NCBI RefSeq assembly: GCF_022701215.1
Contig: NZ_CP089976.1
Location: 720,001-752,000 of the forward strand
DNA from: Moraxella nasovis
GTDB taxonomy: Bacteria > Pseudomonadota > Gammaproteobacteria > Pseudomonadales > Moraxellaceae
Length of the DNA stretch: 32,000 nucleotides
Reading direction: 5' to 3'
The position numbers and the translations under genes are program-made. Each line of letters opens with the position of its first letter. Position 1 is the first letter of the stretch. The notes beneath the pieces are model-generated. The model ran no database searches. It was not told where the DNA came from and worked only from the letters and a program-made list of their open reading frames with translations. This document shows positions 2,189 to 30,320 of the stretch, piece by piece.

Positions 2189-2245
2189 GATTTTCGCTTC
2201 TTATTTTGCCTGTGTTCAATGTCAAGTCTTGTCATTCATCATTCA

Positions 2246-3229: not shown

Positions 3230-3302
3230 TGTCTATCCTTACCATGCTTTTGTGGTATTCGTGGGTGTTACAGGCTTTGATGTAAGATTAGGTTTGCTAT
3301 CA

Positions 3303-3368
3303 GCTGTGTTAAACACAGCCGACAGCAAGGGTAGATTTGACCAAATCCTATGTATTCATAGAATTTGG
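3303..3368 (-). promoter_or_regulatory. Two stem-loops in the precursor-maturase intergenic spacer
   Basis: Hairpin 1 at 3341-3368 has an 11-bp stem (one G.U on the minus-strand transcript) and a 6-nt loop. Hairpin 2 at 3303-3319 is GCTGTGT-taa-ACACAGC with a perfect 7-bp stem. Neither is followed by a U tract. Confidence 0.35.
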
Positions 3369-3400
3369 CACTCAATCATGTAGGCATGATAGCATGATGA

Positions 3401-3709
3401 TTAGTTGCTACCACCACATTTAGCTTCACCGCATTTGGCATCGGCTTTTTTGCTTGTTGTGGCAGTTGCACCGCATTTAGCTTCGCCACATTTGGCGTTT
3501 GCTTTTTTGGTCGCTGTGCTTTTGGCAGCACCACAAGAAGCGTCAGCACATTTTTTGTTGTGTGTTTTTTTGCCGCCGCAGCTGGCGTTGGCACATTTTG
3601 AGTCTTTGGCGTTATTTGAGGTGCTTGTTGAGGTGAATGGATTAGCGTGAGCTGCTGATAATGCCAATAAAGATGAAGCGGTTAGTGCCACAACGGTAGA
3701 TTTTTTCAT
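3401..3709 (-). CDS. Secreted Cys-rich RiPP precursor of the HvfA/oxazolin (EGKCG-like repeat) type
   Basis: This 102-aa ORF has a Sec signal MKKSTVVALTASSLLALSAAHA|NPF. The Lys/Ala/Thr-rich core carries four CX4C doublets: KCANASCG, KCADASCG, KCGEAKCG and KCGEAKCG. A Shine-Dalgarno AAGGAA sits 5 nt upstream. It is the first gene of the DUF692 operon. Confidence 0.8.
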   Translation of the reverse strand: MKKSTVVALTASSLLALSAAHANPFTSTSTSNNAKDSKCANASCGGKKTHNKKCADASCGAAKSTATKKANAKCGEAKCGATATTSKKADAKCGEAKCGGSN

Positions 3710-5703: not shown

Positions 5704-5778
5704 AAAACATGTCGCAAAAATAGTATGGCAACAACCATCTCATCTACAAAAATGTAGATAAAATCAGCAAGTATACCA

Positions 5779-5787
5779 AGAATTATA
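5779..5787 (-). promoter_or_regulatory. Candidate extended -10 promoter (TGcTATAAT) for msrAB
   Basis: The minus strand reads ...gtgTGcTATAATtc... about 80 nt upstream of the msrAB ATG. There is no good -35 at 17-nt spacing. Confidence 0.3.
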
Positions 5788-6042
5788 GCACACTAAAAAA
5801 ATGACAAGTACATCAATCTTAACTTAATTTTGACTTTAAAAAAATCAATGATAGATTGAGCCTTCATGAAACAAACCCAACATAGGAACATGCAAAACAC
5901 ATGAATGCACACGTTGGGTTTTGCAAGTTCAATAAAACCGACAATAACCAACTCACCCACCTTTGCAATTTGAGAGTTTTTTTAAGTTGGGTATGGGATA
6001 ATATTGGAATAATATTTTGCAAAAAAAAATAATAAAAAACAC

Positions 6043-6071
6043 TTGTCAATGTACGTGAATGGTGCTAATTT
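6043..6071 (+). promoter_or_regulatory. Candidate sigma-70 promoter for amiE
   Basis: TTGTCA (6043-6048) and TAATTT (6066-6071) are separated by a 17-nt spacer, about 55 nt upstream of the amiE ATG. An AAGGAG ribosome-binding site lies at about 6112-6117. Confidence 0.3.
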
Positions 6072-6125
6072 AATGTTAAAGGAATGCCAATAATCAAAAC
6101 CTGTAAAAACAACAAGGAGTGAACA

Positions 6126-7166
6126 ATGCGTCATGGTGATATCAGTAGCAGCCCAAATACCGTTGGTGTTGCTGTCGTCAATTATAAAATCCCCCGCCTG
6201 CACACCAAGGCAGAAGTCTTGGAAGAATGCCATAAAATCAGTGAAATGATTAAGGGCATTAAGATGGGTTTGCCGGGTTTGGATTTGATTATCTTTCCAG
6301 AATACAGCACCCAAGGTATCATGTATGATGCCGATGAGATGATGGCAACCGCCGCAACCGTCCCTGGTGATGAGACGGCGATTTTTTCACAGGCGTGCCG
6401 TGATAATAACGTCTGGGGCGTGTTCTCCATCACAGGCGAACGCCACGAAGAACACCCCAAAAAATCACCATACAACACCCTAATTCTCATCAACGACCAA
6501 GGCGAGATTGTCCAAAAATACCGCAAAATCATTCCTTGGTGTCCCATAGAAGGCTGGTGTCCTGGCGATACCACTTATGTGAGCGAAGGTCCTAAGGGGA
6601 TTAAGCTGTCTTTGATTATCTGTGATGACGGCAACTATCCTGAGATTTGGCGAGATTGTGCGATGAAAGGGGCTGAACTTATCATTCGCTGTCAAGGCTA
6701 TATGTACCCTGCATTAGACCAACAAGTGATGATGTCGCAAACGATGGCATGGTGCAATAACTGCTATGTGGCAGTCGCCAATGGCACAGGATTTGATGGT
6801 GTGTATACCTACTTTGGTCATTCAGCACTGATTGGCTTTGATGGGCGAACACTAGGACGGTGTGGCACCGAAGAAAACGGCATTCAATACGCCCAATTAT
6901 CTTTGACCGAAATCCGTGATGCCAGAAAATACGACCAATCTCAAAACCATTTATTCAAATTGTTACATCGTGGTTATACAGCCACTCATAATGATGGCGA
7001 TGGCGATAAAGGCATTGCTGATTGTCCCTTTGAGTTTTATCGCACATGGGTATTGGACGCACAAAAAGCCCAAGAAAACGTAGAGCAATTCACTCGCACG
7101 ACCGTAGGCGTTGCCGAATGCCCTGTGGGTAACGTACCCCACGAAGGCAAAGAAAAACACGTCTAG
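6126..7166 (+). CDS. amiE: Aliphatic amidase (nitrilase superfamily)
   Basis: This 346-aa ORF matches, from memory, Pseudomonas aeruginosa AmiE nearly end to end ([23 protein letters not shown]..., [44 protein letters not shown]). Confidence 0.93.
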
Positions 7167-8550: not shown

Positions 8551-10713
8551 TTAATCCCCCTGATAGCCTTTTAGCTTCAAGCGTGCCTTGTGTAGGAGTG
8601 GCTCGGTATAGCCAGATGGCTCGGTTGTGCCTTTGAAAATTAGGTCTTTGGCGGCATTAAAGGCGATGTTATTGTCAAAATCGCTCGCCATTGGGCGATA
8701 TTCAAGGTCGCCCTTGTTTTGCTCGTCCACAACTTTTGCCATGCGTTTTAAAGCTTCCATCACATCGTCTTCGCTCACAATGCCATGGGTTAGCCAATTG
8801 GCGATGTGCTGACTTGAAATGCGTAGCGTGGCACGGTCTTCCATCAGCCCCACATTATGAATGTCAGGCACTTTTGAACAACCCACGCCCAAATCTACCC
8901 ATCTGACGACATAACCCAAAATACCTTGACAATTATTGTCCAATTCACGGCGTTTGACTTCATCGCCAAAGTTGGTGTCTGTCGCCAAAGGCAAGGTCAA
9001 TAAGTCGTCCAAACTTGGCACCGCTTCGCCAAGCAGTTCATCTTGGCGGTCCAAGACACAGCACTGGTGGTAATGAATGGCGTGAATGGTCGCACCAGAT
9101 GGCGATGGCACCCATGCACAGCTTGCCCCCGCTTGGGGGTGTTCAATCTTCGTGCGGTACATATCGGCAAGCTCATCAGGCTTTGGCCACATACCTTTGC
9201 CAATTTGGGCTTTTGAACGCAGACCTGCATTTAGACCAATGGCGACATTGCGTTTTTCATAAGCATCAAACCAAACTTGCTTTTTGATGTCGCCTTTTGG
9301 GACAAACGCCCCTGCCTGCATGGCGGTGTGAATCTCATCACCTGTTCTGTCCATAAAGCCAGTATTGATAAAGATGGTGCGGTCTTTTGCCTTGGCGATG
9401 CAATTTTTTAGGTTGGCGGACGTGCGTTTTTCTTCGTCCATAATCCCCATTTTGACCGATTTGGCAGGCAGTCCGATGGCTTTTTCGGCACGCTCAAACA
9501 GCTCCACAGCAAACGCCACTTCGTCTGAGCCGTGCATTTTGGGTTTGACGATGTACATAGAGCCTGTACGAGAGTTACGCAATGTGTTTTCGCCACGAAT
9601 ATCAACCGCACTTAGCATGGGCGTGATGAGTGCGTCCATAATCCCTTCAAAAATCTCTTCGCCATCTACAAGAATGGCAGGATTGGTCATCAAATGCCCC
9701 ACATTACGAAGGAGCATGACCGAACGCCCATGCAGAGTTTGGGTGTCGCCATTTAGGTCGGTATAAGTGCGGTCGTCATTGAGCATGCGGGTGATGGTTT
9801 TGCCGTTTTTTTCTACTTGTTCAGACAAATCCCCCTTCATCAAACCCAACCAATTACGATAACCTTCTACTTTCTCGCTGGCATCTACTGCCGCCACCGA
9901 ATCTTCTAGGTCTTGAATGGTGGTAACCGCCGATTCCATCACAACATCTTTTACACCTGCTTTGTCAGACTTGCCGATGGCGTGCGTGCGGTCAATTTGA
10001 ATAATGACGTGTAAGCCGTTGTTTTTTAGGATAATTTCGCTTGGGCTGTCAGGCTCGCCATTATAGCCGACTAACTGTTCGGCATTTTTTAAAGTCGTCT
10101 TGCTATCGCCGATTTGTGCCAAAAGTTTAGCGTCTTTGATGGCATAAGCCGTTACATCGCTGTGCAAGCCGTCTGTTAGGGAGAAAGTCTCATCAAGGAA
10201 ATTTTTGGCAAATTCAACGACTTTTGCCCCACGCACAGGGTTATAGCCTACCCCCTTGTCCGCACCGTCTGTTTGGGGGATAACATCAAAGCCGTACAAA
10301 GCATCATACAGCGACCCCCAGCGGGCATTACCTGCGTTTAGGGCATAGCGAGCATTACGCACAGGCACGACAAGCTGAGCCCCTGAAATCGTTGCAATTT
10401 CGTCATCTACATTGTCTGTGGTGATTTGAAAATCATCAACTTCTGGTTCAAGATAACCAATATCAGTCAAAAAACTTTTATAGGCACTTAGCTCATAAGG
10501 GTTGTTTTTGTGCCATTCATCAATCTTGGCTTGTAGTTCGTCTCGCTTGGCAAGCAAGGCTTTATTTTTTGGGGTCAAATCACGCACAACTTGCTCAAAG
10601 TTTTGCCAATAAGTATTGCTGTCAATCCGTGCAACAGGTAGGGCTTCTTGTTCAATAAAGTCAAATAAAATCTTGTCAATGGCAAGTGTGCCTTTTTGGA
10701 TACGGTCGGTCAT
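8551..10713 (-). CDS. glcB: Malate synthase G
   Basis: This 720-aa ORF has the length and sequence typical of GlcB (MTDRIQKGTLAID..., ...MYIVKPKMHGSDEVAF..., ...GMWPKPDELADM...). A Shine-Dalgarno AAGGA lies upstream. Confidence 0.93.
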   Translation of the reverse strand: MTDRIQKGTLAIDKILFDFIEQEALPVARIDSNTYWQNFEQVVRDLTPKNKALLAKRDELQAKIDEWHKNNPYELSAYKSFLTDIGYLEPEVDDFQITTDNVDDEIATISGAQLVVPVRNARYALNAGNARWGSLYDALYGFDVIPQTDGADKGVGYNPVRGAKVVEFAKNFLDETFSLTDGLHSDVTAYAIKDAKLLAQIGDSKTTLKNAEQLVGYNGEPDSPSEIILKNNGLHVIIQIDRTHAIGKSDKAGVKDVVMESAVTTIQDLEDSVAAVDASEKVEGYRNWLGLMKGDLSEQVEKNGKTITRMLNDDRTYTDLNGDTQTLHGRSVMLLRNVGHLMTNPAILVDGEEIFEGIMDALITPMLSAVDIRGENTLRNSRTGSMYIVKPKMHGSDEVAFAVELFERAEKAIGLPAKSVKMGIMDEEKRTSANLKNCIAKAKDRTIFINTGFMDRTGDEIHTAMQAGAFVPKGDIKKQVWFDAYEKRNVAIGLNAGLRSKAQIGKGMWPKPDELADMYRTKIEHPQAGASCAWVPSPSGATIHAIHYHQCCVLDRQDELLGEAVPSLDDLLTLPLATDTNFGDEVKRRELDNNCQGILGYVVRWVDLGVGCSKVPDIHNVGLMEDRATLRISSQHIANWLTHGIVSEDDVMEALKRMAKVVDEQNKGDLEYRPMASDFDNNIAFNAAKDLIFKGTTEPSGYTEPLLHKARLKLKGYQGD

Positions 10714-10737
10714 ATTTTATCCTTAAAATCAATCATT

Positions 10738-10776
10738 TAAAAAAAACGGTGCTTTGCTTTTTACAAAACACCGTTT
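10738..10776 (-). terminator. Rho-independent terminator after aceA, upstream of glcB
   Basis: The minus-strand transcript reads AAACGGUG...CACCGUUU followed by about 8 U. The loop can extend the stem by 4-5 more pairs. Confidence 0.6.
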
Positions 10777-10893
10777 ACAGTCAATTTAGGTGAGACCAAG
10801 CGGATAAATGCTAATGCAAGGAAAACGAGCGAAGCTGTACAAGTAGTACTGCAAGCGAGTTTGACGAAGCAGTAGCGTTTAGCCGAGCAGGTC

Positions 10894-12498
10894 TTAGCCG
10901 CCAAACTGGTTCATGGTGTTCTTACTCGCATCTCCTGCTTTTAGGGCATTATCACCAGAGAAAATCTCTTTGTGGTCATCGCCAATATCGGAGCCTGCCA
11001 TCGCTTGATGCTTCACGCAAGCGATTCCGCCACGAATTTCTTTACGCTGAACACCTGCCACATAAGCGAGCATACCTTCATCACCAAAGTAGCCTTTGGC
11101 AAGCTCATGTGTAGATAAGGCAGCAGTGTGGTAAGTTGGCAGTGTGATTAGGTGATGGAACACGCCTGCCTCACGAGCGGCATCAGCTTGGAAAGTGCGG
11201 ATTTTGTCATCGGCATCACGGGCAAGCTCGCTGTCGTCATATTGTGCGTCCATCAGTTTGGCACGGTCGTAGCCTGATACATCTTTGCCCTCGGCAACCC
11301 AGCGGTCGTAGGCTTGCTGACGGAAGTTTAGCGTCCAGTTAAATGATGGCGAATTGTTGTACACCAATTTGGCATCTGGTACTTGTTTTTTGATGTCGTT
11401 CACAAAACTTGCAATGGCAGCCACATCTGGCGTTGGCGTTTCAATCCAAATCATGTCCGCACCGTTTTGAAGTGATGTTACGCAGTCTAGCACCACACGG
11501 TCATGCTGTGTGCCTTTACGGAACTGATATAAACCTGACGGCAAGCGAGTGGGTCTGTGTAATTTGCCATCACGCTTGATGAGAATTTCGTCATCAAAGG
11601 CATCAGCGATGTCAATCTCGGCGGTTTCTAGGTAGCTGATGTATTTGCTTGCCAAATCGCCTTTTTCTTTTGATACTGGGATTTTTTGGGTCAAATCCGC
11701 CCCTTCTGAGTCGGTACGAGCGACAATCACGCCATCATCAACGCCAAGCTCCAAAAACGCATAACGCACGGCGTTAATCTTAGCCAAAAAGTCTTCGTGC
11801 GGTACCGTAACTTTACCTGCTTGGTGTCCGCATTGCTTGGCATCTGACACTTGGTTTTCAATCTGAATGGCACACGCCCCAGCTTCAATCATCTGCTTGG
11901 TCAAAAGATAAGTCGCCTCTTCGTTACCAAAGCCTGCATCAATGTCAGCGATGATTGGCACGACATGGGTTTCAAAATTATCAATTTGACTTTCAATCTC
12001 TTTGGCAAGGGCGGTATCGCCTGCTTCTTCTGCCTTTTGTAAGGCACGAAATAGGTCATTTAATTCTTTGGCATCTGCTTGACGAAGGAAAGTATAAATC
12101 TCGGCGATGAGTTTTGGCACAGCGGTTTTTTCGTGCATGGACTGGTCAGGCAATGGACCAAACTCAGAACGCAGTGCCGCCACCATCCAACCTGATAGGT
12201 AGATGTAGCGTTTGTCGGTTGTGCCAAAGTATTTTTTATTGGCAATCATTTTTTGTTGGGCGATAAATCCATGCCAACAGCCGAGCGACTGGGTGTATTT
12301 GCTGTTATCAGCGTCGTATTCTGCCATGTCACGACGCATGATTGATGCGGTGTATTTGGCGATGTCAAGTCCTGTTTTAAAGCGGTTTTGCACCATCATA
12401 CGGGCAGCGTCATCGGGGCAGATAGCACCCCAAGTATCGCCAAGCTTGGCTTTTACGTTCTTCACGTGTTGTAGTGCTGATTGATAAGACTGTGTCAT
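10894..12498 (-). CDS. aceA: Isocitrate lyase (long, Pseudomonas/Acinetobacter-type form)
   Basis: The ORF track gives 541 aa starting at 12519. I prefer the ATG at 12498 (MTQSYQSALQ...) because AAGGAG lies 7-8 nt upstream of it. The protein is ICL-like throughout (KQCGHQAGKV). Confidence 0.92.
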   Translation of the reverse strand: MTQSYQSALQHVKNVKAKLGDTWGAICPDDAARMMVQNRFKTGLDIAKYTASIMRRDMAEYDADNSKYTQSLGCWHGFIAQQKMIANKKYFGTTDKRYIYLSGWMVAALRSEFGPLPDQSMHEKTAVPKLIAEIYTFLRQADAKELNDLFRALQKAEEAGDTALAKEIESQIDNFETHVVPIIADIDAGFGNEEATYLLTKQMIEAGACAIQIENQVSDAKQCGHQAGKVTVPHEDFLAKINAVRYAFLELGVDDGVIVARTDSEGADLTQKIPVSKEKGDLASKYISYLETAEIDIADAFDDEILIKRDGKLHRPTRLPSGLYQFRKGTQHDRVVLDCVTSLQNGADMIWIETPTPDVAAIASFVNDIKKQVPDAKLVYNNSPSFNWTLNFRQQAYDRWVAEGKDVSGYDRAKLMDAQYDDSELARDADDKIRTFQADAAREAGVFHHLITLPTYHTAALSTHELAKGYFGDEGMLAYVAGVQRKEIRGGIACVKHQAMAGSDIGDDHKEIFSGDNALKAGDASKNTMNQFGG

Positions 12499-12891
12499 GA
12501 TACTACTCCTTATTGTCATGATGTGCTAGGCACGGGGTTTTGGTAAGAAAAAGATGGTCAAACCATTTGACTTCATCATCTTTAAACACAGCATACAAAA
12601 ATCTTTGCACCTTGACTACCCTATGAAACTGTATATTCACTATTTATATAAAAAATGATACTAGTTTTATTATTAAAATATTAAATATAATAAGACGCTT
12701 TGGTGGTTCATTGACAGTACTTCGCCTGCTTTTGCTTGCGTTATGGTGTTTTTGGGTGAGCTTTGTTAAAATTGAGCCAATAACAGCTTTTATGCAATCA
12801 ATTTTGTATAATTTGGTACAGGCTTACAATGCCACCCCCTTGGCGATTATAGCAATCGCCTAAAATCCACCCTAACCGATGAAAGCACATA

Positions 12892-13878
12892 ATGACACAT
12901 TCAAACAACTTCATGCACCACATCTTTGGACATCGATCTCCTGACACTGATGCGATCGTTTCTGCCTTAGTCTTAGCAGAATATTTTCGCTTACAAGGCG
13001 TTCCATCCGCCTCTTATCGCCTAGGCAAAATGAATGGCGAAAGTACGTTTTTATTAAATTTAGTATCAGCTCGCCCACCCATTTACTTAGATCCTGATCA
13101 GCCTTATGATATACTTCACTCAGGTGATATCATCTGCCTTACCGACCATAATGAGACAGCCCAAAGCATTAACCATCTTGAAGACTTTACCATCAGTCAT
13201 GTGATTGACCACCACAAAATCGCCTTAAACACAAAAACGCCTGCCTACATTCGCATCATGCCTGTTGGTTGCACTTGTACTATTTTACTTGACCTATTCA
13301 CCGAAAAAAGACTTCCCATTACAGCAAAGACTGCCACACTGATGCTCGGTGCTATCATCTCAGACACCCTAAATCTACAAAGCCCGACAACCACAGACAG
13401 CGATATCCTAGCGGTAGATAAGCTTGCTAAAATCGCACAGATTCACCGTGTGGATGAATTTGCTGAGCGGCTGTTCACCGCCAAAAGCAACCTTACACAT
13501 CTATCTGCCCAAGACATCTTACTTGGGGACTATAAAGAATTTAGCTTTAATGAGATGAGCGGCACTGTAAAATGGGGTATTGCAGGCATTGAAACTATGG
13601 ATAGCTCATACGTGTTTAATCGCATGGATGAATTAACAAGCCAAGCCGCTTTACTTAAAAATACCAAAAATTTAGATTATCTAATGATCGCTGTGGTGGA
13701 CATCCGAGCAAAAACAAGCTTTATCATGGCGTATGACGAAGCCCAAAACGCCATCATCAGACAAGCATTTGATATCAATGATGATGGCAAACTGTTTACA
13801 CTAAAGGGCATCGTCAGCCGTAAAAAACAACTGGTGCCGACACTGGCTCATTACCACCAAAGCTTTAGTAAAAATTAA
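12892..13878 (+). CDS. ppaC: Family II (Mn-dependent, DHH-DHHA2) inorganic pyrophosphatase
   Basis: This 328-aa ORF aligns, from memory, with Bacillus PpaC: FGH.SPDTDAI, DHNE, IDHHK, PVGCT.TIL, AIISDTL...SPTTT, LKGIVSRKKQLVP. The start could instead be the Met at 12913. Confidence 0.88.
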   Translation: MTHSNNFMHHIFGHRSPDTDAIVSALVLAEYFRLQGVPSASYRLGKMNGESTFLLNLVSARPPIYLDPDQPYDILHSGDIICLTDHNETAQSINHLEDFTISHVIDHHKIALNTKTPAYIRIMPVGCTCTILLDLFTEKRLPITAKTATLMLGAIISDTLNLQSPTTTDSDILAVDKLAKIAQIHRVDEFAERLFTAKSNLTHLSAQDILLGDYKEFSFNEMSGTVKWGIAGIETMDSSYVFNRMDELTSQAALLKNTKNLDYLMIAVVDIRAKTSFIMAYDEAQNAIIRQAFDINDDGKLFTLKGIVSRKKQLVPTLAHYHQSFSKN

Positions 13879-13977
13879 CAAAATAGATGATTTTAGTCAT
13901 GAATTCATGCTAAACTAAATGAGCATATTATCCCAAACCTTGACTTTGTGTTAAGTTTCATTAGAAAGGAAAACCCC

Positions 13978-15357
13978 ATGTTTAAAGACATCTCTTTGCA
14001 CGCCTACGACCCAGAACTTGCCGCCGCCATTGATGCTGAAAGCCAGCGTCAAGAAGACCACATTGAGCTTATCGCCTCAGAAAACTACTGCTCGCCTGCG
14101 GTCATGGAAGCCCAAGGCACCGCTTTGACCAACAAATATGCCGAAGGCTATCCAAACAAACGCTACTACGGTGGCTGTGAACACGTAGACATCATTGAGC
14201 AAATCGCCATTGACCGTGCCAAAGAGCTGTTTGGTGCTGACTACGCCAACGTACAGCCCCACTCAGGTTCATCTGCCAATGCGGCGGTCTATTTGGCACT
14301 CCTAGAAGCAGGCGATACCGTGCTTGGCATGAGCTTGGCTCACGGTGGGCATTTGACGCATGGGGCTTCTGTGTCATTCTCTGGCAAGACTTATAATGCA
14401 GTACATTATGGCATCACCGATGACGGATTTATTGATTATGATGAAGTTGCTCGCCTAGCACGCACGCACAAGCCTAAGATGATTATTGGTGGGTTCTCAG
14501 CGTATAGCCAAGTGGTGGATTGGCAAAAGTTTCGTGAGATTGCCGATGAAGTGGGTGCTTATCTGATGGTGGATATGGCACACGTGGCAGGTCTTGTGGC
14601 AGCAGGCGTGTATCCTAACCCTGTCAAGATTGCTGATGTTACCACCACCACCACACACAAAACCTTGCGTGGTCCACGTTCAGGTCTTATTCTTGCCAAA
14701 GCGAATGCAGAGATTGAGAAAAAACTAAACTCAGCCGTATTCCCCGGTAGCCAAGGCGGTCCTTTGATGCACGCTGTGGCAGCCAAAGCGGTGTGCTTTA
14801 AAGAAGCGATGAGCGATGACTACAAAGCCTACCAACAGCAGGTCGTCAAAAATGCCCAAGCCATGGCAAATACCATCATCAATCGTGGCTATGACGTGGT
14901 CTCTGGCGGTACCCAGAACCACCTAATGCTCGTCAGCCTAATCAAACAAGGCATCACAGGCAAAGACGCAGACAAATGGCTTGGCGATGCTCACATCACC
15001 GTCAATAAAAACGCCGTACCAAACGACCCCAAATCACCCTTTGTTACATCAGGCATTCGCCTAGGCACGCCAGCGGTAACCACTCGTGGCTTTAAAGAAG
15101 CAGAATGCGTTGCCTTAGCAGGTTGGATTTGTGATATTTTAGATGCCAAAGGCGATGAGACAGTGATTGGCGAAGTGCGTGCCAAAGTTGCTGATGTCTG
15201 TGCTAGATTGCCCGTCTACCAAAAATCTAAAGCCAAAGAGCTTTTAGCCAAACTTGGTGATGTTATCGATGAGCAAGCGGATAATGAACTTATCCAAACT
15301 GCCAAAGAAAAAGTGACTGAGCTTTATGAAAAGCTAAGCCAAAAGATTGCTAAGTAA
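13978..15357 (+). CDS. glyA: Serine hydroxymethyltransferase with a 44-aa C-terminal extension
   Basis: I chose the ATG at 13978 (MFKDISL...) because AAAGGAAAA lies upstream. The ORF-track start at 13948 is a GTG with no ribosome-binding site. The protein is canonical SHMT ([14 protein letters not shown]) up to ...CARLPVYQ. It then continues with [44 protein letters not shown]. Confidence 0.93.
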
Positions 15358-21064: not shown

Positions 21065-23953
21065 TTAGACATCTGACTTACCTTGTTCTAAGACCAACTT
21101 TAAAAATCTACCTGTGTGCGATCGTTCGTCACTTGCCACATCTTCTGGCGTACCAAAAGCAACGATTTTTCCGCCACCACTACCACCTTCATAGCCCAGA
21201 TCCACCACCCAATCAGCCGTCTTAATCACGTCTAAATTATGCTCAATCACCACCACCGTATTACCACGATCCCTTAAGGTGTGTAGGATTTTTAGTAGCT
21301 TATCAATGTCAGCAAAATGCAGACCTGTGGTTGGCTCATCTAAAATGTATAAGGTCTTACCTGTGTCTCGCTTGGATAACTCTTTTGCTAATTTCACCCT
21401 TTGGGCTTCACCGCCTGATAATGTCGTAGCAGACTGACCAAGCTTAATGTAGTCTAACCCAACCTCAGATAAGGCTTGCACTCTTCGGTAAATGGCGGGA
21501 ATGTTCTCAAAAAACACCATCGCCTCTTCAACCGTCATCTCAAGCACATCCGAGATGGATTTGCCTTTATAGTGAACTTCTAAAGTCTCACGGTTATAAC
21601 GCTTGCCATGACAAGCATCACACGGCACATACATATCAGGCAAAAAGTGCATCTCAACCTTAATCAAGCCATCACCTTGGCAGACCTCACAGCGTCCGCC
21701 CTTGACATTAAAACTAAATCGTCCCGCCTGATAACCCCTTGCTCTTGCCTCTGGCGTCTGCGTAAATAAGTCTCTAATCAATGTGAAAACACCTGTATAA
21801 GTGGCAGGATTACTGCGTGGCGTCCTTCCAATGGGACTTTGGTCGATATCCACCATCTTATCTAGGTGTTCAAGCCCTGTAATTTTATCGTGTTTTTCAG
21901 CAATAAGTGTCGTAGCATTGTTTAGTGTTGTTGCCGCAAGTGGCATCAAGGTGCGGTTAATCAGTGTACTCTTACCAGACCCTGACACACCTGTAACACA
22001 CGTCATTACCCCAATCGGAATAGATAAATTGACATTTTTTAGATTATTGCCATTAGCACCTTCTAAATGGATGAACAGCGGTTCTTGTAGTGTTTTTTTA
22101 CCCTTTTTAACTTCGATGGTTTTTGGGGTATGGCGGATTTTAGGAATTTCAATTTTGCGTTTTCCTGATAAGTACTGCCCTGTTAAGGAATCTTTATTTT
22201 TAGCAATTTGGCTTGCAGTGCCTTGTGCAATCACTCGACCGCCATGCACGCCTGCCCCCACGCCAATATCAATAACGTGGTCAGCTGTGCGGATTGCATC
22301 TTCATCATGCTCAACGACAATCACTGTATTGCCAAGATCACGCAGATATGTCAAAGTAGATAACAGGCGGTCGTTATCTCGCTGGTGCAGACCGATTGAT
22401 GGCTCATCTAGTACATACATCACACCCATAAGCCCTGCTCCGATTTGGCTTGCCAAGCGAATCCGCTGAGCCTCGCCTCCTGATAGCGTCTCAGCAGAGC
22501 GTGCCAGCGTCAGATAGTCAAGACCAACTTTCACCAAAAACCCAAGTCTTTCACGAATTTCTTTGAATATCTTATCCGCCACTTCGCCTTTATGACCGCC
22601 GATGGTGAGTTTCTCATAATATTGCCAAATCTCACCAATCGGCTGATGTATGATATCGCCAATCACTCGATTATCAACTTGCACATGACGAGCGATGTCA
22701 TTTAAACGAACGCCATCACAGACATTACAGGTGGTGTCTGATAGATACCGCGCCAGTTCATCACGCACAAGGTTACTCGTTGTGGATTGATAACGACGCT
22801 CTAGATAAGGTAAAATCCCCTCAAAAGGCGTATTTTTATTGGTCTTACGTCCACGCTCATCGGTGAATTGAAAGTTAATCTTTTCTTTTGCTGAACCATT
22901 TAAAATGATGTTTTGGTGCTTTTTATCCAACGCTTGCCATGGTGTGTCCATATCGATGCCAAAATGCGCGCAAACGGTTGTCAATAATCCAAAGTAATAC
23001 GCATGGCGTTTATCCCAGCCATGGATTGCCCCCTGATTTAGGGATTTTTGTGGCTCGTGAATCAGACGCTCTGCACTAAAATACTGACGCTTACCTAAGC
23101 CGTCGCACGAAGGACATGCCCCAAACGGATTGTTAAAGCTAAATAACCTTGGCTCAAGCTCAGCCACTGCTCTATCGCACACAGGACAAGAATGCTTGGC
23201 AGATAAGATTTGCTCATCTGCAGTATCCATCAGATGAATGATTGCCAAATCTGAACCCAATCTTAAGGCAGTCTCTAAACTCTCAGCAACCCGATTACCC
23301 AAATCTTCACGCACTTTAAACCGATCCACCACTACATCGATGGTGTGCTTTTTGTTTTTTTCTAAGCTTGGCAATTCATCAATATCGTAAATTATACCAT
23401 CAATACGCACCTTAGTAAAACCTTGGGCAGACAGCTGATCGAGTAAAGCCAAATGCTCGCCTTTGCGTTCACGCACCACAGGGGCTAAAATCATCAGCTT
23501 TGTGCCTTCAGGTCTTGCCATCACTTCATCGACCATCTGCGATACCGTCTGAGCTACCATAGGCTCGCCATGCTCAGGGCAATATGGCACACCCACCCGA
23601 GCAAACAAAAGCCTTAGATAATCGTACACTTCTGTGATTGTGCCGACGGTTGAGCGGGGGTTGTGGTTGGTGGATTTTTGTTCAATGGCAATCGCTGGTG
23701 ATAAGCCTTCAATGCTATCTACATCAGGCTTTTGCATCTGACTAAGAAACTGGCGAGCATAGGCAGATAAGCTCTCCACATAGCGACGCTGACCTTCTGC
23801 ATACAGCGTATCAAAGGCAAGCGACGACTTGCCCGACCCTGACAGACCTGTAATGACCACAAACTGGTTACGGGGGATATCCACATCAATATTCTTTAGA
23901 TTATGTGTTCTTGCCCCTTTGATACTAATGTGCTTATGCATAAACTCGCTCAT
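21065..23953 (-). CDS. uvrA: Excinuclease ABC subunit A
   Basis: This 962-aa ORF has [16 protein letters not shown], two ABC modules ([28 protein letters not shown] twice) and zinc-finger CxxC pairs. Confidence 0.96.
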
Positions 23954-24138: not shown

Positions 24139-24783
24139 ATGAATCAGACCATTCGTGCCTATTTAGGTGGCAGCTTTGACCCCATACATTTGGGGCATTT
24201 ACAAATGGCAGCAACCGTCTTTGACACGCTTAAGCGACATCGCCCCACCTGTGACATTCATGTTTATCTACTGCCCACTGCTGGTAATCCTTTTAAGTCA
24301 CAACCCACATCAGATAAGCACCGCACTGCCATGCTACAACTTGCCGCAGCTGGCACACCGATTGGCATTGATACTTTTGAGCTGTCTGTGCCACCACCTG
24401 TATTTACCATTGATACCGTTAAGCATTTAGCCCATCAGCACCCTAATGATCGGCGAATTTTTATCGTGGGGCAAGACAGCCTGCACGCTTTGCCGACATG
24501 GAAATCTGGCGACAAGATTTTAGATTTTGTGAATATTTGGGCATTTCACAGATCTAACCTATCAGAGCCACTACCGCCAAGCTTAAGCCCTCTCATCACC
24601 GACAGTTTAAGCAAATTTTTGGATAAATCGCATCAGATTTACCAAGATACAACACCCATTATAGCGACATCATCAAGCCAAATACGCTCCATGCTGGCAA
24701 ATAACAACCCAAAAGCTGAACAGTTTTTATCAGTAAACGTTGCAAACTACATCAAAAACCACGCACTTTATGTAAAGTTATGA
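24139..24783 (+). CDS. nadD: Nicotinate-nucleotide adenylyltransferase
   Basis: This 214-aa ORF has the GGSFDPIHLGHL nucleotidyltransferase motif and lies upstream of rsfS, as in many bacteria. Confidence 0.85.
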   Translation: MNQTIRAYLGGSFDPIHLGHLQMAATVFDTLKRHRPTCDIHVYLLPTAGNPFKSQPTSDKHRTAMLQLAAAGTPIGIDTFELSVPPPVFTIDTVKHLAHQHPNDRRIFIVGQDSLHALPTWKSGDKILDFVNIWAFHRSNLSEPLPPSLSPLITDSLSKFLDKSHQIYQDTTPIIATSSSQIRSMLANNNPKAEQFLSVNVANYIKNHALYVKL

Positions 24784-24819: not shown

Positions 24820-25194
24820 ATGACAAATACCAATAATCTATCATTGGATGCTCAAGTAGCACTCGTTGTTAATGCGTTAGACGACCTAAAGGCTAAACAA
24901 ATCACCGTAATGAGCGTCGATCATTTAACCGAGATTGCTGAACGCATCATCATCGCTAACGCCACCAGTAAACGCCACGTTAAGGCACTGGCTGACAAGC
25001 TTGGTGCAGCCGCCAAAGAACAAGGGCTTATGCCACTTGGCCGTGAGGGCGATAAAGATAGCGACTGGACGCTTGTGGATTTAGGTGCGGTAGTAGCACA
25101 CATCATGACTCCCCAAGCTCGTGAATTTTACGACTTAGAAGGCTTATGGTCATCACCTGACGCCCTAAGAGCATTAGCTGTTAAACAAGAATAA
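24820..25194 (+). CDS. rsfS: Ribosome silencing factor (Iojap/YbeB family)
   Basis: This 124-aa ORF has DLKAKQITVMSV...IIANATSKRHVKALAD...DWTLVDLGAVVAHIMTPQAREFYDLEGLW and conserved nadD-rsfS synteny. Confidence 0.9.
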   Translation: MTNTNNLSLDAQVALVVNALDDLKAKQITVMSVDHLTEIAERIIIANATSKRHVKALADKLGAAAKEQGLMPLGREGDKDSDWTLVDLGAVVAHIMTPQAREFYDLEGLWSSPDALRALAVKQE

Positions 25195-25411
25195 CCCAAA
25201 TACAGTTAGGTGTTTTTTATCGTGTCTACTGATGATAAAATTACACGCCTAGCCAAATTTTTACGTCCATTTACCACTTAGGTCTATATCTTAGGTCATC
25301 TAGGAAGACATAAAGCGGCTTTTTGGTTGCTAAATTTAAGATAAAACCAAGTACGCTTAAGCTAAACGGACACTTAGCACCATCAACCCACTAACTTAGG
25401 TTTTGATTATC

Positions 25412-26440
25412 ATGAATCATCTTAGCCATTCTTTTGCCTCTGATAACTACTCTGGCATACACCCCACCATCTTACAAGCCATCAGTGACGCCAACTGCGG
25501 ACATGATTATGCCTACGGAACAGATGCGTGGACAGACAAGCTAAACGACTTAGTCAAACAGCACTTCGGCAAAGGCACAGCTTATCCTGTCTTTAACGGC
25601 ACAGGGGCAAACATCACCGCACTGACTGCCATGCTCCCAAGATTTGGGGCGGTGATTTGTACAGATAAGGGGCATATCTATAATGATGAAAGTAACGCCC
25701 CCGAGTGCGTTGGTGGCTTTAGAATGTTCACCATACCAACCGAAGATGGCAAGCTAACCCCTGAACTCATTGACACTCAGGCTTATGGCTTTGGTAAAGA
25801 GCATCGCTCACAACCTGCGATTGTCCATCTTGCTATGACGACCGAAGTTGGGACGTGTTATAGTCTTGATGAGCTGCGTGCCATTGTGGCACACGCCAAA
25901 AAACTTGGGCTATACACCTATATTGATGGAGCTCGACTCTCTAATGCCTGTGCTTATCTAAATTGCACCCTAAAAGACATCGCCGATACAGGTGTGGATA
26001 TGCTCTCACTTGGCGGAACAAAAAACGGACTTATGCTCGGTGAGTGCATCGTGGTGCTAAACGATGAGTTTGATGCCAACATGAAATACATGCGTAAAAT
26101 GACCATGCAATTAAGCTCAAAAATGCGTTTCATCTCCGCTCAGTTTGTCACTTGGCTAGAAAGTGGGTTATGGCTTGAGCTTGCCAAGCATAGCAACGAA
26201 ATGGCACGTCACTTGGCAAATCAGATTCAAAACTTAGATGGCGTTACCATCACCCAAAAAGTGCAGTCTAATGCTGTATTTGTCATCTTACCCAAGCAAA
26301 CCGTCGCAAAACTGCACGAAGATTTTTATTTTTATGATTGGAATGAATTTACTGGCGAGATTCGCTTGATGATGGGCTTTGATACAACAATCGCCCAAGT
26401 AGATGAGCTTGCCAACAAAATAAAAGCCTATCTGCCATAA
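25412..26440 (+). CDS. ltaE: Threonine aldolase family (beta-eliminating lyase fold) PLP enzyme
   Basis: I start it at the ATG at 25412 (MNHLSHSFASDNYSGIHP...). FNGTGANITAL and LSLGGTKNGLMLGE (PLP Lys region) are typical of low-specificity threonine aldolases. Confidence 0.78.
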   Translation: MNHLSHSFASDNYSGIHPTILQAISDANCGHDYAYGTDAWTDKLNDLVKQHFGKGTAYPVFNGTGANITALTAMLPRFGAVICTDKGHIYNDESNAPECVGGFRMFTIPTEDGKLTPELIDTQAYGFGKEHRSQPAIVHLAMTTEVGTCYSLDELRAIVAHAKKLGLYTYIDGARLSNACAYLNCTLKDIADTGVDMLSLGGTKNGLMLGECIVVLNDEFDANMKYMRKMTMQLSSKMRFISAQFVTWLESGLWLELAKHSNEMARHLANQIQNLDGVTITQKVQSNAVFVILPKQTVAKLHEDFYFYDWNEFTGEIRLMMGFDTTIAQVDELANKIKAYLP

Positions 26441-26460: not shown

Positions 26461-26583
26461 ATGAATATAGCCGACTTTGACCGCACCCATCTTTGGCACC
26501 CTTATGCCAGCCTACCGCCTGCTTATGATAATCTTGTGGTCAGCCATGCTGATGGCGTGTGTCTTTATTTGCCAGCTGCCTAG
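26461..26583 (+). pseudogene. Truncated 5' fragment of a bioA allele (40 codons plus TAG)
   Basis: It translates to MNIADFDRTHLWHPYASLPPAYDNLVVSHADGVCLYLPAA*. Positions 26474-26571 match 27530-27627 of the intact bioA at 97 of 98 positions. The fragment has its own different start region 20 nt after the ltaE stop. Confidence 0.85.
26474..26571 (+). repeat. Left copy of a 98-bp direct repeat (bioA codons about 8-40)
   Basis: By hand alignment it is identical to 27530-27627 except for one mismatch (26562 T versus 27618 C). The offset is 1056 bp. Confidence 0.95.
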
Positions 26584-26790
26584 CTTGGCAAAAAGCTGAG
26601 TGCCAAAGCCAAAGCATCGGGGCTTATGCCACTTGGGCGTGAAGGCGACAAAGACAGCGATTGGACTTGGGTAGACCTAGGGGCGGTGGTCGTGCATATC
26701 ATGACACCGCAGGCTCGTGAATTTTATGATTTAGAAGGTCTGTGGTCATCACCAGAAGCCTTGCGAGCATTGGCAATACAAAAGGCGTAA
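26584..26790 (+). pseudogene. 3' fragment of a divergent rsfS copy
   Basis: It translates to LGKKLSAKAKASGLMPLGREGDKDSDWTWVDLGAVVVHIMTPQAREFYDLEGLWSSPEALRALAIQKA*. This parallels residues about 57-124 of the intact rsfS. It is in the same frame as the preceding bioA fragment, separated only by the TAG at 26581-26583. It lacks the 5' half of the gene. Confidence 0.85.
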
Positions 26791-26825
26791 ATTTATAGTT
26801 GTTTTTAATCTAAGGACATATCGAC

Positions 26826-27365
26826 ATGGATTATCACATGAAAGCTATCGGCACAAAATTATCTCTTGCATTTGGCGGTTTACTTTTGGTAAATGCTAGT
26901 GCTATTGCCAACGACCAAACAAAGGTTGATACGATCAAAAAAATATATCAGCGTGCAATTGATTGTAATGATAGCTCGATTTGTGGTGATAATCCTATTT
27001 GGTCTTATCTTGATGATAGCCTACGCTCTGCTGTTAAGCACGCCTATGAGAATAAAGACTTGGGGGATATCTCAGGAGACCCTTTCCATCCATGTACTGA
27101 TTGGGGATTTGGTGATAATGCCCTATTAGGCTGGTCGCAAGATTCGCCACTTGGTGGTTTTAAGATGAATCAGTTTCAATTTTCAATCCTTAAAAATGGC
27201 GATGTTCGTGCCAAATTTAAAGACATCGTAAATAAGAGACAAAACTTCCCTAGTTTTTTTGTAGATATTAAACTATCTGAGTTTGGCAATACTTATAAAA
27301 TATCTGATATTATTAGTCATGGCGACAGCTTTAAAGACCATCTTAATCAATGCCATTTGTACTAG
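26826..27365 (+). CDS. Hypothetical secreted protein (179 aa, 5 Cys in the mature part)
   Basis: AAGGA lies 9 nt upstream of the ATG. The Sec-type signal is MDYHMKAIGTKLSLAFGGLLLVNASAIA|NDQ. The gene is followed by its own terminator. It looks more A+T-rich than its neighbours by eye. I do not recognise a family. Confidence 0.65.
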   Translation: MDYHMKAIGTKLSLAFGGLLLVNASAIANDQTKVDTIKKIYQRAIDCNDSSICGDNPIWSYLDDSLRSAVKHAYENKDLGDISGDPFHPCTDWGFGDNALLGWSQDSPLGGFKMNQFQFSILKNGDVRAKFKDIVNKRQNFPSFFVDIKLSEFGNTYKISDIISHGDSFKDHLNQCHLY

Positions 27366-27417
27366 TATCATTCATACAAATATACCGATATTGCCAATTG
27401 CCAAACCACTCATTACC

Positions 27418-27445
27418 AACCACTCTTTTGGGTGGTTTTTATTTG
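27418..27445 (+). terminator. Rho-independent terminator after the 179-aa gene
   Basis: AACCACTC-tttt-GGGTGGTT has one G.U pair and is followed by TTTATTT. Confidence 0.6.
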
Positions 27446-27507
27446 CCTGATTGACAATAACTATTTATAATACCACAAATACCCATCATGATTTTTGGAA
27501 TAAATAA

Positions 27508-28815
27508 ATGACCGTGCAGGCGTTACAACACTTTGACCGCACCCATCTTTGGCACCCTTATGCCAGCCTACCGCCTGCTTATGATAATCTTGTGGTCAGC
27601 CATGCTGATGGCGTGTGCCTTTATTTGGCGGACGGCACTCAGCTGATAGATGGTATGTCATCATGGTGGGCAGCAATTCATGGCTACAATCACCCTGTGT
27701 TAAATCACGCCATTACCAAACAATTATCCAAGATGAGTCATGTGATGTTTGGCGGTTTAACTCACACCCCTGCCATCACACTTGGCGAGAAACTGCTTGG
27801 CATCACCCCCAAAAACTTAACCAAAATTTTCTATGCCGATTCAGGTTCGGTGGCAGTAGAAATCGCCCTAAAAATGGCGTTGCAATACCACATTGCAAAA
27901 CAAAACCCCACAAAAAACACCTTCGCCAGTACGCATTCAGGCTATCATGGCGACACATGGCACGCCATGAGCGTGTGCGACCCCATCAACAGTATGCACA
28001 CATTATATGGCACAAAACTACCTACGCAATATTTTTTGCCCAAACCACCTACAGGCTTTGACACGCCACTAGATGATGAAACCAAAGCACAAATGGCAGA
28101 TTTTTTTGTGCGTCATCATGCAACATTGGCAGGCTTTATCATTGAGCCTATCGTACAGGGTGCGGGAGGTATGCGGTTTTATAGCCCAGAATATCTATCA
28201 TATTTACATTCTTTGTGTCAGTATTATGATGTCTTGCTAATTTGTGATGAAATCGCCACAGGCTTTGGGCGGACAGGGGCAATGTTTGGGGTAAATCACG
28301 CCAATATCTGCCCAGACATCATGACCCTAGGCAAGGCTTTGACAGGGGGTATGATGAGCTTTGGGGTGGTGATGACAACCGACAATGTCGCCCTAAGCAT
28401 TCATCACAGCGACTGCCCCACGCTCATGCACGGTCCAACCTTTATGGGCAATCCTTTGGCGTGTGGTGTGGCATCTGCAAGCATTGATTTGGTGCATGAA
28501 TACAACACGCCCCACCTTGCCAAACTCATGCAAGCCAAATTAGAAACTCATTTGGCGGTATGCCAAGACTGGGAACAGGTAGCAGATGTGCGATGCTTGG
28601 GGGCGATTGGCGTGATTGAAATGAAAATCCCAATAAATATGCCCATCTTTCAATCGCTACTGCCCAAATATGGCATTTGGGTGCGACCTTTTGGTCAATT
28701 GGTATATCTTATGCCCCCAATCGTGATGGGCGATGATGATTTGGCATATTTATGCACACAGCTTGTGGCATTGTTGGCAGAATACCTAAACAAAACTTGC
28801 GTAACAGCTGATTAA
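27508..28815 (+). CDS. bioA: Adenosylmethionine-8-amino-7-oxononanoate aminotransferase
   Basis: This 435-aa ORF has HLWHPY, SSWWAAIHGYNHP, DSGSVAVEIALKMA, LICDEIATGFGRTG and TLGKALTGG (PLP Lys). bioD follows it. Confidence 0.94.
   Translation: MTVQALQHFDRTHLWHPYASLPPAYDNLVVSHADGVCLYLADGTQLIDGMSSWWAAIHGYNHPVLNHAITKQLSKMSHVMFGGLTHTPAITLGEKLLGITPKNLTKIFYADSGSVAVEIALKMALQYHIAKQNPTKNTFASTHSGYHGDTWHAMSVCDPINSMHTLYGTKLPTQYFLPKPPTGFDTPLDDETKAQMADFFVRHHATLAGFIIEPIVQGAGGMRFYSPEYLSYLHSLCQYYDVLLICDEIATGFGRTGAMFGVNHANICPDIMTLGKALTGGMMSFGVVMTTDNVALSIHHSDCPTLMHGPTFMGNPLACGVASASIDLVHEYNTPHLAKLMQAKLETHLAVCQDWEQVADVRCLGAIGVIEMKIPINMPIFQSLLPKYGIWVRPFGQLVYLMPPIVMGDDDLAYLCTQLVALLAEYLNKTCVTAD
27530..27627 (+). 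repeat. Right copy of the 98-bp direct repeat, inside the intact bioA
   Basis: See the left copy at 26474-26571. Confidence 0.95.
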
Positions 28816-28854: not shown

Positions 28855-29526
28855 ATGAGTGTTTATTTCATCACAGGCATAGATACTGACATTGGCAAGA
28901 CTTATGCCACAGGTGTGCTGGCTCGTGAGTTTATCAAGCTGGGCAAATCGGTCATCACCCAAAAACTTGTACAAACAGGCGTAACAGGGCAAGTGGCGGA
29001 CGACATCATTACGCACCGACAGCTTATGGGCATTAGCTTGCAGGATACGGATACAGATGGTACGACTTGTCCAATGATGTTTGCCAAGCCTGCCAGCCCC
29101 CATTTATCAGCTCGCCTAGAAAATAAAACGATAGATACCGCCATCATCACCAAGGCAACTCAAAGGCTACAAAGCCATTATGACATCGTCCTACTAGAAG
29201 GGGCAGGCGGTGTTTTGGTGCCGATGAGCGATGAATTATTGACATTAGACCATATCGCCCACTGTGGCTACCCTGTCATCATCGTAACATCGGCTCGCCT
29301 AGGCAGTATCAACCATACCCTACTTAGCCTAGAAGCCATCGCCAATCGGGGGCTTGATGTGGCAGGCGTTGTGTTTAATCATTATTTTGATGGCGATGAT
29401 GACATCAGTGCCGACACGCTAAATTATCTAAAAAATCATGTGGCACGGCATTATCCGAGTGCATTATTTATGGAACTTATGGGCGATAAGATTGTAGGCT
29501 TTGGTGATATGGCAGATAGATTTTAA
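28855..29526 (+). CDS. bioD: Dethiobiotin synthase
   Basis: This 223-aa ORF has the P-loop-like MSVYFITGIDTDIGKT, plus EGAGGVLVP and GSINHTLLS. Confidence 0.93.
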   Translation: MSVYFITGIDTDIGKTYATGVLAREFIKLGKSVITQKLVQTGVTGQVADDIITHRQLMGISLQDTDTDGTTCPMMFAKPASPHLSARLENKTIDTAIITKATQRLQSHYDIVLLEGAGGVLVPMSDELLTLDHIAHCGYPVIIVTSARLGSINHTLLSLEAIANRGLDVAGVVFNHYFDGDDDISADTLNYLKNHVARHYPSALFMELMGDKIVGFGDMADRF

Positions 29527-30320
29527 CGCACTTTATAATACCACTCATGTCGCACCCCAAAGCCAATCTCCATCAAACTTGCCAATATCCGCCCTGTCAG
29601 CCCCCAAATCACTTCTACTTGCCCATCATCATTGCAGTCATAGACCCAGGCAGGGGTGTGTAGTTTGGTGTTGTCCGCCTGTCCGTCAAACACATAATCC
29701 GCAGGCGGTGCATTTAGCACATCAATCGGCAACCAAAATATCCGTGCTATCTCGTCAGGATTAGATGTCAGTCCATCTGCCACAGACGGCGACACACACG
29801 CCACCACAGGACGCACCAAAAGACCTGATTTAGAAACCTGCATGGGTAAATAGCCGAGCACAGTTACGTCCTTTGATGCCAAACCGACTTCTTCATAGGC
29901 TTCACGCAAGGCGACACCAATAGAATTTAGGTCCGCATCATCACGCTTACCACCCACCAAAGACACTTCGCCTGCATGGCTATTTAGGTGGTATGACCGC
30001 CGTGTCAAAAGCAGTTTTGGGCAATTTTCGTCCGTAATGACAATCAGCACGCACGCCTGTGGCAAAAAGTGATTATTTAAAAGATTTTGGCATTTTTTGA
30101 TTGGTTTGCCTTTGATTGGTTTGCTTTTGATTATTTTGTCTTTGATTGAGCCTGTCAAAAGCTCATTATTTTGTGTCAATGGCAATATATCCACGCCTTG
30201 ATAATTACTCAAATGTTGGGATAACTCATAAAAACGGTGCGATGGTAACACATCAATCATCGCTTTATCCGTATATATTTGTTGGCGATAGTTTTGAAAA
30301 TCATTTGTCATTTGTGGCAT
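29523..30320 (-). CDS. Nudix hydrolase, CoA pyrophosphatase (NudL-like) with an N-terminal extension
   Basis: LLLTRRSYHLNSHAGEVSLVGGKRD resembles the CoA-pyrophosphatase signature, and it is followed by the Nudix box ALREAYEEVGL. At 265 aa it is longer than the typical length of about 190 aa. Its stop overlaps the bioD stop. Confidence 0.78.
   Translation of the reverse strand: MPQMTNDFQNYRQQIYTDKAMIDVLPSHRFYELSQHLSNYQGVDILPLTQNNELLTGSIKDKIIKSKPIKGKPIKKCQNLLNNHFLPQACVLIVITDENCPKLLLTRRSYHLNSHAGEVSLVGGKRDDADLNSIGVALREAYEEVGLASKDVTVLGYLPMQVSKSGLLVRPVVACVSPSVADGLTSNPDEIARIFWLPIDVLNAPPADYVFDGQADNTKLHTPAWVYDCNDDGQVEVIWGLTGRILASLMEIGFGVRHEWYYKVR
30096..30148. repeat. Imperfect 15-bp tandem repeat (about 3.5 units) inside the NudL-like gene
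   Basis: The units are TTTGATTGGTTTGCC, TTTGATTGGTTTGCT, TTTGATTATTTTGTC and a partial TTTGATTG. On the minus strand they encode the ...IKDKIIKSKPIKGKPIKK... pentapeptide periodicity. Confidence 0.85.

Follow-up and report, generated by a model that had tools for sequence, protein, structure and literature searches.

In the chromosome of Moraxella nasovis, a sheep respiratory isolate with a genome assembled into one contig of 2.03 Mb, the interval from rsfS to bioA is present in two versions, arranged in tandem, head to tail, with a single novel joint between them. We analyzed a stretch of 32,000 nucleotides (nt) of this genome (NZ_CP089976.1, positions 720,001 to 752,000), hereafter called the window, in which the gene order is nadD, intact rsfS, ltaE, a truncated bioA (bioA′), a truncated rsfS (rsfS′), an open reading frame (ORF) designated orf179, intact bioA, and bioD. 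The structure is probably a heteroallelic tandem duplication, i.e., a merodiploid scar of the rsfS-to-bioA interval, which arose by recombination between the DNA of two Moraxella lineages. The features of the locus, in window coordinates, are listed below; the gene identities, order, and coordinates given in the original prediction are all present as stated there.

24139 to 24783, forward strand: nadD (TIGR00482, 123.6 bits, cutoff 112), left flank of the conserved block.
24820 to 25194, forward strand: intact rsfS (A-type), 124 amino acids (TIGR00090, 112 bits, cutoff 56.9).
25195 to 25411, no strand: left-module spacer of 217 nt, without detectable homology to the spacers of relatives.
25412 to 26440, forward strand: threonine-aldolase-family gene ("ltaE"), 342 amino acids (PF01212, 175 bits).
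26461 to 26473, forward strand: unique 13-nt start of bioA′, ATGAATATAGCCG, encoding MNIA(D), apparently a natural bioA start.
26474 to 26571, forward strand: repeat copy 1, nt 14 to 111 of the truncated bioA, 97/98 identical to 27530 to 27627.
26572 to 26592, no strand: illegitimate joint, read directly against intact bioA and rsfS.
26584 to 26790, forward strand: rsfS′ (B-type), last 68 codons and stop codon (PF02410, positions 48 to 98 of 98).
26826 to 27365, forward strand: orf179 ("cargo"), predicted exported NTF2-like protein of a rare family, with a signal peptide.
27418 to 27445, forward strand: ancestral rsfS terminator, hairpin and T-run, homologous to the post-rsfS hairpin of relatives.
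27443 to 27497, forward strand: bioA promoter-like site (TTGCCT-17-TATAAT, consensus scan) and 5′ leader.
27508 to 27529, forward strand: unique 22-nt start of intact bioA, encoding MTVQALQ(H), with the N-terminal length found in L001, L003, and L085.
27530 to 27627, forward strand: repeat copy 2, within intact bioA, the pair of 26474 to 26571.
27508 to 28815, forward strand: intact bioA, 435 amino acids (TIGR00508, 523 bits, cutoff 405).
28855 to 29526, forward strand: bioD (TIGR00347, 177 bits, cutoff 83), right flank of the conserved block.

The flanking genes and the two intact genes are securely assigned, as nadD, rsfS, bioA, and bioD all score above their NCBIfam equivalog cutoffs. The label ltaE is secure at the family level only: the protein exceeds the cutoff of PF01212 (27 bits) and scores 58 bits against the LtaE equivalog NF007825, below the cutoff of 312. 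This ORF stops at a TAA (positions 26438 to 26440), and 20 nt downstream the ATG at 26461 opens a 40-codon ORF, MNIADFDRTHLWHPYASLPPAYDNLVVSHADGVCLYLPAA, which encodes a BioA N terminus and ends at a TAG (26581 to 26583). The bioA fragment carries no GenBank annotation. A 54-amino-acid ORF inside rsfS′ (26626 to 26790) is annotated as UNU74010.1, "RsfS/YbeB/iojap family protein"; it is the remnant of a truncated gene, and its 90% cluster otherwise contains a membrane protein unrelated to it and a short fragment that is caviae-like. Both bioA′ and rsfS′ are dead remnants.

The deposited genome has the same gene order, as seen from its consecutive GenBank accessions (UNU74007 for nadD, 74008 for rsfS, 74010 for the rsfS remnant, and 74013 for bioD). 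An assembly artefact, or a chimera of two Moraxella strains grown in a mixed culture, is nonetheless a possibility to be weighed: M. nasovis is represented by one genome only in the collections searched, look-ups of the exact orf179, BioA, and RsfS proteins matched no further assembly, and the analysis covered the assembled sequence. However, a 98-nt repeat with four unique flanks is not typical of a collapse or expansion error, the bioA-to-rsfS joint lies in mid-gene with 12 extra bases and without any common sequence that could mislead an assembler, and the record is a single contig with the gene order annotated. We regard an artefact as very unlikely.

Two repeat pairs, of 98 nt and 182 nt, are the sole long repeats in the 32 kb, and no long inverted repeats were found across it. 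The repeat search agrees with the original prediction of 98-bp direct repeats that are 97/98 identical and 1056 bp apart. Their sole mismatch (T at 26562 versus C at 27618) is synonymous, giving Cys as TGT or TGC, at a codon where relatives carry Arg (CGT or CGC). For comparison we used two metagenome-assembled genomes (MAGs; L001 and L003), a Logan contig (L084), M. haemolytica (L088), and M. caviae (L089). In the nearest relatives, the same stretch of bioA is 79 to 86% identical, and at least 97 matches in 98 positions would occur with a probability of 1e-5 if identity were 86.5% and of 2e-12 if it were that of the two rsfS copies. The near identity of the repeats is thus neither chance nor mere conservation, and both copies come from the bioA of one lineage.

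The two rsfS copies have a different history. The 68 codons of rsfS′ (26584 to 26787) are in frame with the bioA′ ORF and correspond to the C-terminal half of the RsfS profile (PF02410, 56.4 bits against a cutoff of 21.6; E value, 3.6e-15; profile positions 48 to 98 only). A diverged repeat of 182 nt (24997 to 25178 and 26593 to 26774) is 77% identical, and over the whole remnant 55 of 204 nt (27%) differ from resident rsfS, with no stop codon and no indel; the differences split 12/7/36 over the three codon positions, and synonymous sites are saturated. They cause 13 amino acid changes, where neutral decay would produce 33.7 ± 2.7. The two copies therefore show orthologue-level divergence under purifying selection and derive from two lineages, and rsfS′ must have been functional in another lineage up to its truncation. 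It has changed at a few residues that are otherwise invariant (LADKLG to LGKKLS and TLVDL to TWVDL), which suggests that some constraint was relaxed after truncation. The rsfS genes of relatives are ∼71 to 82% identical to both copies, and with synonymous sites saturated, identity does not tell which copy is native.

This pattern bears on a simpler account, in which an old tandem duplication arose within the M. nasovis lineage, rsfS′ decayed as a pseudogene, and gene conversion kept the bioA copies identical. Such a history agrees with the head-to-tail order and the single joint. Against it, rsfS′ evolved under purifying selection, none of 20,000 neutral simulations was as conservative, and its 68-codon frame is intact (the probability of no stop codon is 0.14); moreover, the two copies of the interval hold different inserted genes and different bioA starts. 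An internal origin is therefore highly improbable, even more so than an artefact.

At the joint between the two modules, nucleotide 111 of bioA is connected to approximately codon 57 of rsfS via 12 nt, CCAGCTGCCTAG (26572 to 26583), which match neither gene and provide the stop codon; confident rsfS homology begins at 26593 at the latest. An imperfect hairpin found there lacks significance (z = −1.36). The bases of CCAGCTGCCTAG include CAGCTG, which is also present in intact bioA at 27640 to 27645, 12 nt past the end of the repeat; bioA′ might thus reach slightly further, with a 12-nt deletion, or the joint might contain templated filler.

At the other edge, the identity of the repeats starts abruptly at ACTTTGACC, and directly upstream of it the two bioA starts are unrelated (13 nt versus 22 nt). 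The original prediction had pointed out that the first codons differ, MNIADFDR versus MTVQALQHFDR, and comparison with relatives indicates that both are natural N-terminal variants: the former has the N-terminal length of MDLQDFDR in L084 and resembles MNLHD... in L001, and the length of the latter is found in L001, L003, and L085. Near the start of the repeat, a block of 26 nt, TTTGACCGCACCCATCTTTGGCACCC, is identical even in L084 and is a possible anchor for recombination.

The original prediction explained the locus by Campbell-type insertion, and in its full form this explanation has a circular rsfS′-orf179-bioA′ molecule from a diverged donor species entering by a single crossover, with the repeats homogenised later by gene conversion. 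The topology is exactly that of a circle crossover, with direct repeats of a homologous segment and one circle-closing joint, and single crossovers of circles in Escherichia coli experiments duplicate 109 to 950 bp of the homologous locus (PMC3240628). However, the repeats should then be reciprocal hybrids of donor and recipient, with ∼14 to 25 differences in 98 nt expected and 1 seen, and gene conversion would have to remove all differences from a homeologous stretch of 98 nt, right out to its two edges. Natural transformation, furthermore, brings in single strands and does not deliver circles. While the topology stands, a diverged donor is excluded by the contrast between the bioA repeats (1 difference in 98) and the rsfS copies (23 to 27% differences), and Campbell insertion is workable only if the donor bioA was already of the resident type. 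We consider this explanation unlikely.

The order nadD-rsfS-bioA-bioD is found in 5/5 other Moraxella lineages, with a gap of 65 to 233 nt between rsfS and bioA, and the ancestral order was nadD-rsfS-terminator-promoter-bioA-bioD. Both ltaE and orf179 are newcomers at this locus, because homologues in relatives lie at other loci.

Homologues of ltaE (66 to 75% identity) sit in a yqeY-ltaE-M48 arrangement in relatives, including the MAG that supplied L001. When the two left spacers (217 nt and 20 nt) were compared with the rsfS-bioA and yqeY-ltaE spacers of relatives, blastn, tblastx, and shuffled local alignments gave no significant match, and no remnants of yqeY, M48, or the ancestral spacer were found in them. 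In the left module, the aldolase gene thus appears to have replaced the entire spacer, bioA promoter included. Upstream (window positions 8551 to 15357) are glyA and the glyoxylate shunt genes for malate synthase G and isocitrate lyase; in the presence of glyA, the relocated threonine aldolase would supply glycine by a second route.

The right module has retained more of the ancestral interval. Its hairpin (27418 to 27445) is homologous to the hairpin found right after rsfS in L084, M. haemolytica, and L001: pairing extends to 96% of cells when the terminator alignment is in register but to ≤68% when it is not, and there are two compensatory pairs. The −10 region and leader (27463 to 27497) align with the region upstream of M. 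haemolytica bioA, and none of 300 shuffles aligned as well. What the original prediction took for the own terminator of the 179-amino-acid gene is by homology the ancestral rsfS terminator. It appears from these alignments that orf179 was inserted between the stop codon and the terminator of rsfS, within a natural rsfS-bioA interval. The gene itself holds up as an ORF (26826 to 27365), with AAGGA 9 nt before its ATG and, downstream, the hairpin and T-run read at 27418 to 27437; GenBank starts it at Met5 (175 amino acids).

The orf179 protein belongs to a rare family. Among 1.84 billion sequences, the family comprises six other representatives of 50%-identity clusters, at 36 to 49% identity, and in the family alignment the signal peptide is conserved, cysteines are invariant, and the C terminus bears a QCHL motif. 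The protein has no match in Pfam or NCBIfam. An AlphaFold (AF2) model built from the seven-sequence alignment (predicted local distance difference test score, 82; predicted template-modeling score, 0.76) indicates an NTF2-like fold. The fold matches are weak (E ≥ 1e-3) and include 3kzt, a Bacteroides protein of unknown function (template-modeling score of 0.72 on the target), YbjP, the type VI immunity protein Tai3, and MlaC-type lipid binders. Two homologues with readable context (L090, 6001 to 6510, and L094, 1634 to 2143) are single genes in unrelated neighborhoods; one of the two was recovered from the sample that also yielded L084, the nearest BioA relative. When metagenomes and viral sequences were scanned with the family, the contig already known was the sole return, and nothing viral was found.

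A single foreign-looking gene that is slightly AT-rich (G+C content at third codon positions, 0.31) and lies between direct repeats could also suggest that orf179 arrived on a mobile element or in a gene cassette, the 98-nt repeat being the target-site duplication. Yet Pfam scans of the window revealed no transposase or integrase, there are no terminal inverted repeats and no tRNA (Rfam and tRNA scans gave nothing above threshold), and nothing similar turned up in the collections of plasmids, phages, and viral contigs searched. A duplication of 98 nt is far beyond the target duplications of transposons. In addition, the unit is made of chromosomal pieces: from rsfS it has the 3′ end and the terminator, and from bioA the promoter and the start. 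Of the explanations we considered, a mobile element is the least credible.

These comparisons strengthen the inference, already made in the original prediction, that two former versions of the interval existed, rsfS-ltaE-bioA and rsfS-cargo-bioA: each half has its own natural-looking bioA start, and in the right half the rsfS terminator is still followed by the bioA promoter, as in the ancestral interval. The flanks give a further hint. In nadD and rsfS, M. nasovis groups with M. caviae (site patterns of 20:3:1 and 7:1:2), and intact RsfS is nearest to that of M. caviae (88% amino acid identity); BioA and BioD are nearest to L084, and right-flank synteny is as in L001, L084, and L085. The left and right flanks may thus differ in ancestry, a weak indication, and we did not use the phylogenetic incongruence of nadD/rsfS with bioA/bioD as proof. 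The neighborhood also varies in relatives. In L084, a 124-amino-acid gene separates bioA from bioD, and three genes separate the two NUDIX genes (2673 to 3047 and 4784 to 6684), and in M. caviae (L089, 2856 to 4475) Sel1 and two YfjT genes lie between uvrA and nadD; from such small insertions near the conserved block, the neighborhood appears to be generally plastic.

Under the heteroallelic duplication that we favor, a threonine-aldolase gene would have taken the place of the whole rsfS-bioA spacer in one lineage (the left module), and orf179 would have entered between the rsfS stop codon and terminator in another (the right module). The modules would then have been joined head to tail through one illegitimate joint with 12 unassignable bases. 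The bioA copies come from one lineage and the rsfS copies from two, and therefore the event reused the resident 5′ segment of bioA.

Two routes could lead to this product. In the first, a single step, ∼958 bp of foreign DNA (26572 to 27529), comprising the rsfS 3′ end, orf179, the terminator, the promoter, and the first 22 nt of bioA, would have entered the cell, probably by natural transformation. It would have paired at the conserved block where the repeat starts, including the 26-nt run identical in L084, and an illegitimate joint would have fixed its other end 98 nt farther downstream, on a sister chromatid or after resynthesis. This would duplicate the resident 98 nt and restore an intact bioA that has a promoter of its own. 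In the second route, a replacement would first give two upstream versions within one species, with the body of bioA common to both, and an unequal illegitimate exchange between these versions, Campbell-type or interchromatid, would follow. The first route is more parsimonious and puts the illegitimate joint at the donor end. The second agrees, if weakly, with the hint from the flanks, in which nadD and A-type rsfS go with M. caviae, and BioA, BioD, and the right synteny go with L084, L085, and L001. Natural transformation as the entry route is inferred from the biology of the family, and the choice of route and of the native module is likewise a matter of inference. By either route, one intact rsfS and one intact, promoter-equipped bioA are left, and the product would thus be tolerated.

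The one-step route would amount to a duplicative form of homology-facilitated illegitimate recombination (HFIR), in which a ∼1-kb fragment is anchored in a gene and joined on the sister chromatid, the target gene is rebuilt, and a foreign gene is captured. We put this forward tentatively, as a minority possibility. HFIR had been named in the original prediction as an alternative, but its classic form does not fit: insertion is there accompanied by the loss of recipient DNA lying between anchor and joint (PMC3240628), whereas here 98 nt are duplicated.

Several observations weigh against a heteroallelic duplication. The simpler arrangements that the original prediction would have in relatives, rsfS-ltaE-bioA and rsfS-orf179-bioA, were not found in any genome or metagenome searched. 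This is a weak test, as the available relatives are distant: the nearest BioA relatives of M. nasovis are only 79% identical and the best LtaE match is 75% identical, and the missing parental arrangement therefore weighs little. Site patterns in bioA (12:12:2) show no clean breakpoint, so that the phylogenetic incongruence is weak, and a screen of the G+C content and codon usage of the pieces gave no discrimination. The polarity clues conflict, as the short bioA′ start and the right-module terminator both resemble L084. Two independent insertions of single genes into the same short spacer in two lineages are a coincidence, no direct experimental precedent can be cited for a duplicative one-step capture, and the structure was read from the assembled sequence.

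The scar is a new natural instance of known processes. To our knowledge, well-resolved natural products of transformation or illegitimate recombination have seldom been described, the processes being known from laboratory crosses. Here, the remnants are preserved enough for the event to be read: two lineages, one illegitimate joint, a resident segment reused, and rsfS and bioA kept functional. The locus would show that a single gene, for a rare exported protein with a predicted NTF2-like fold, and a metabolic gene can join a housekeeping operon without a mobile element. If the one-step duplicative reading is true, the rsfS-bioA spacer of this Moraxella clade would also be a recurrent landing site for single genes without mobile-element machinery. 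It is reasonable to predict that the structure is unstable through RecA-mediated loss of the 1056-bp unit, which would place a hybrid bioA right behind ltaE, without a promoter of its own.

Elsewhere in the window, a reverse-strand cluster (141 to 3709) encodes an extracytoplasmic function (ECF) sigma factor (141 to 746), DoxX (724 to 1443), DUF2063 (1415 to 2188), an MbnB/TglH/ChrH-family enzyme (2246 to 3229), and a 102-amino-acid ORF (3401 to 3709) with a signal peptide and the repeated Cys motifs CANASCG, CADASCG, and KCGEAKCG (twice). It looks like a bufferin-type gene cluster for a ribosomally synthesized and posttranslationally modified peptide, together with its precursor peptide. Three tandem 15-nt units (30095 to 30148) inside a reverse-strand NUDIX hydrolase gene encode KPIKG/KPIKK. 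UvrA (21065 to 23953) is present in NCBI in two lengths, 962 and 958 amino acids, a difference in start codon annotation.

Among known systems, the locus shares features with four. Like a spontaneous tandem duplication, it has a head-to-tail interval (from mid-rsfS to nt 111 of bioA), a single novel junction, and a predicted instability; unlike one, whose copies are identical at birth, it has rsfS parts that are 23 to 27% diverged and different genes in the two copies (ltaE versus orf179). As in Campbell integration, direct repeats, here of 98 nt, bracket the inserted 958 bp, and there is one joint where a circle could have closed; the sequence carries no trace that would tell such a joint from one between chromatids. 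However, the repeats of M. nasovis are not hybrids, though the rest of the insert is ∼25% diverged, and the locus has no vector, marker, or known circular intermediate. Transformation can also bridge sister chromatids and thereby produce tandem duplications (Johnston et al. 2013, PMC3784515). In the resulting interchromatid merodiploids, as in M. nasovis, a tandem duplication holds intact and altered alleles side by side. Those duplications span 100 to 900 kb between long repeats (IS861 copies), with homologous pairing at both ends (PMC3784515), whereas the M. nasovis unit is ∼1 to 1.6 kb, one of its joints is illegitimate, and its copies come from different lineages. HFIR in transformation is described, in the account of it that PMC3240628 gives, for Acinetobacter baylyi, Streptococcus pneumoniae, and Pseudomonas stutzeri (de Vries and Wackernagel 2002, Prudhomme et al. 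2002). The M. nasovis locus differs from it in that the 98 nt between the boundaries are duplicated, which needs a sister chromatid or resynthesis. It resembles HFIR in having an illegitimate joint at one boundary, with a conserved block as a possible homologous anchor at the other, in the capture of a foreign gene, and in its host, whose family, the Moraxellaceae, includes A. baylyi.

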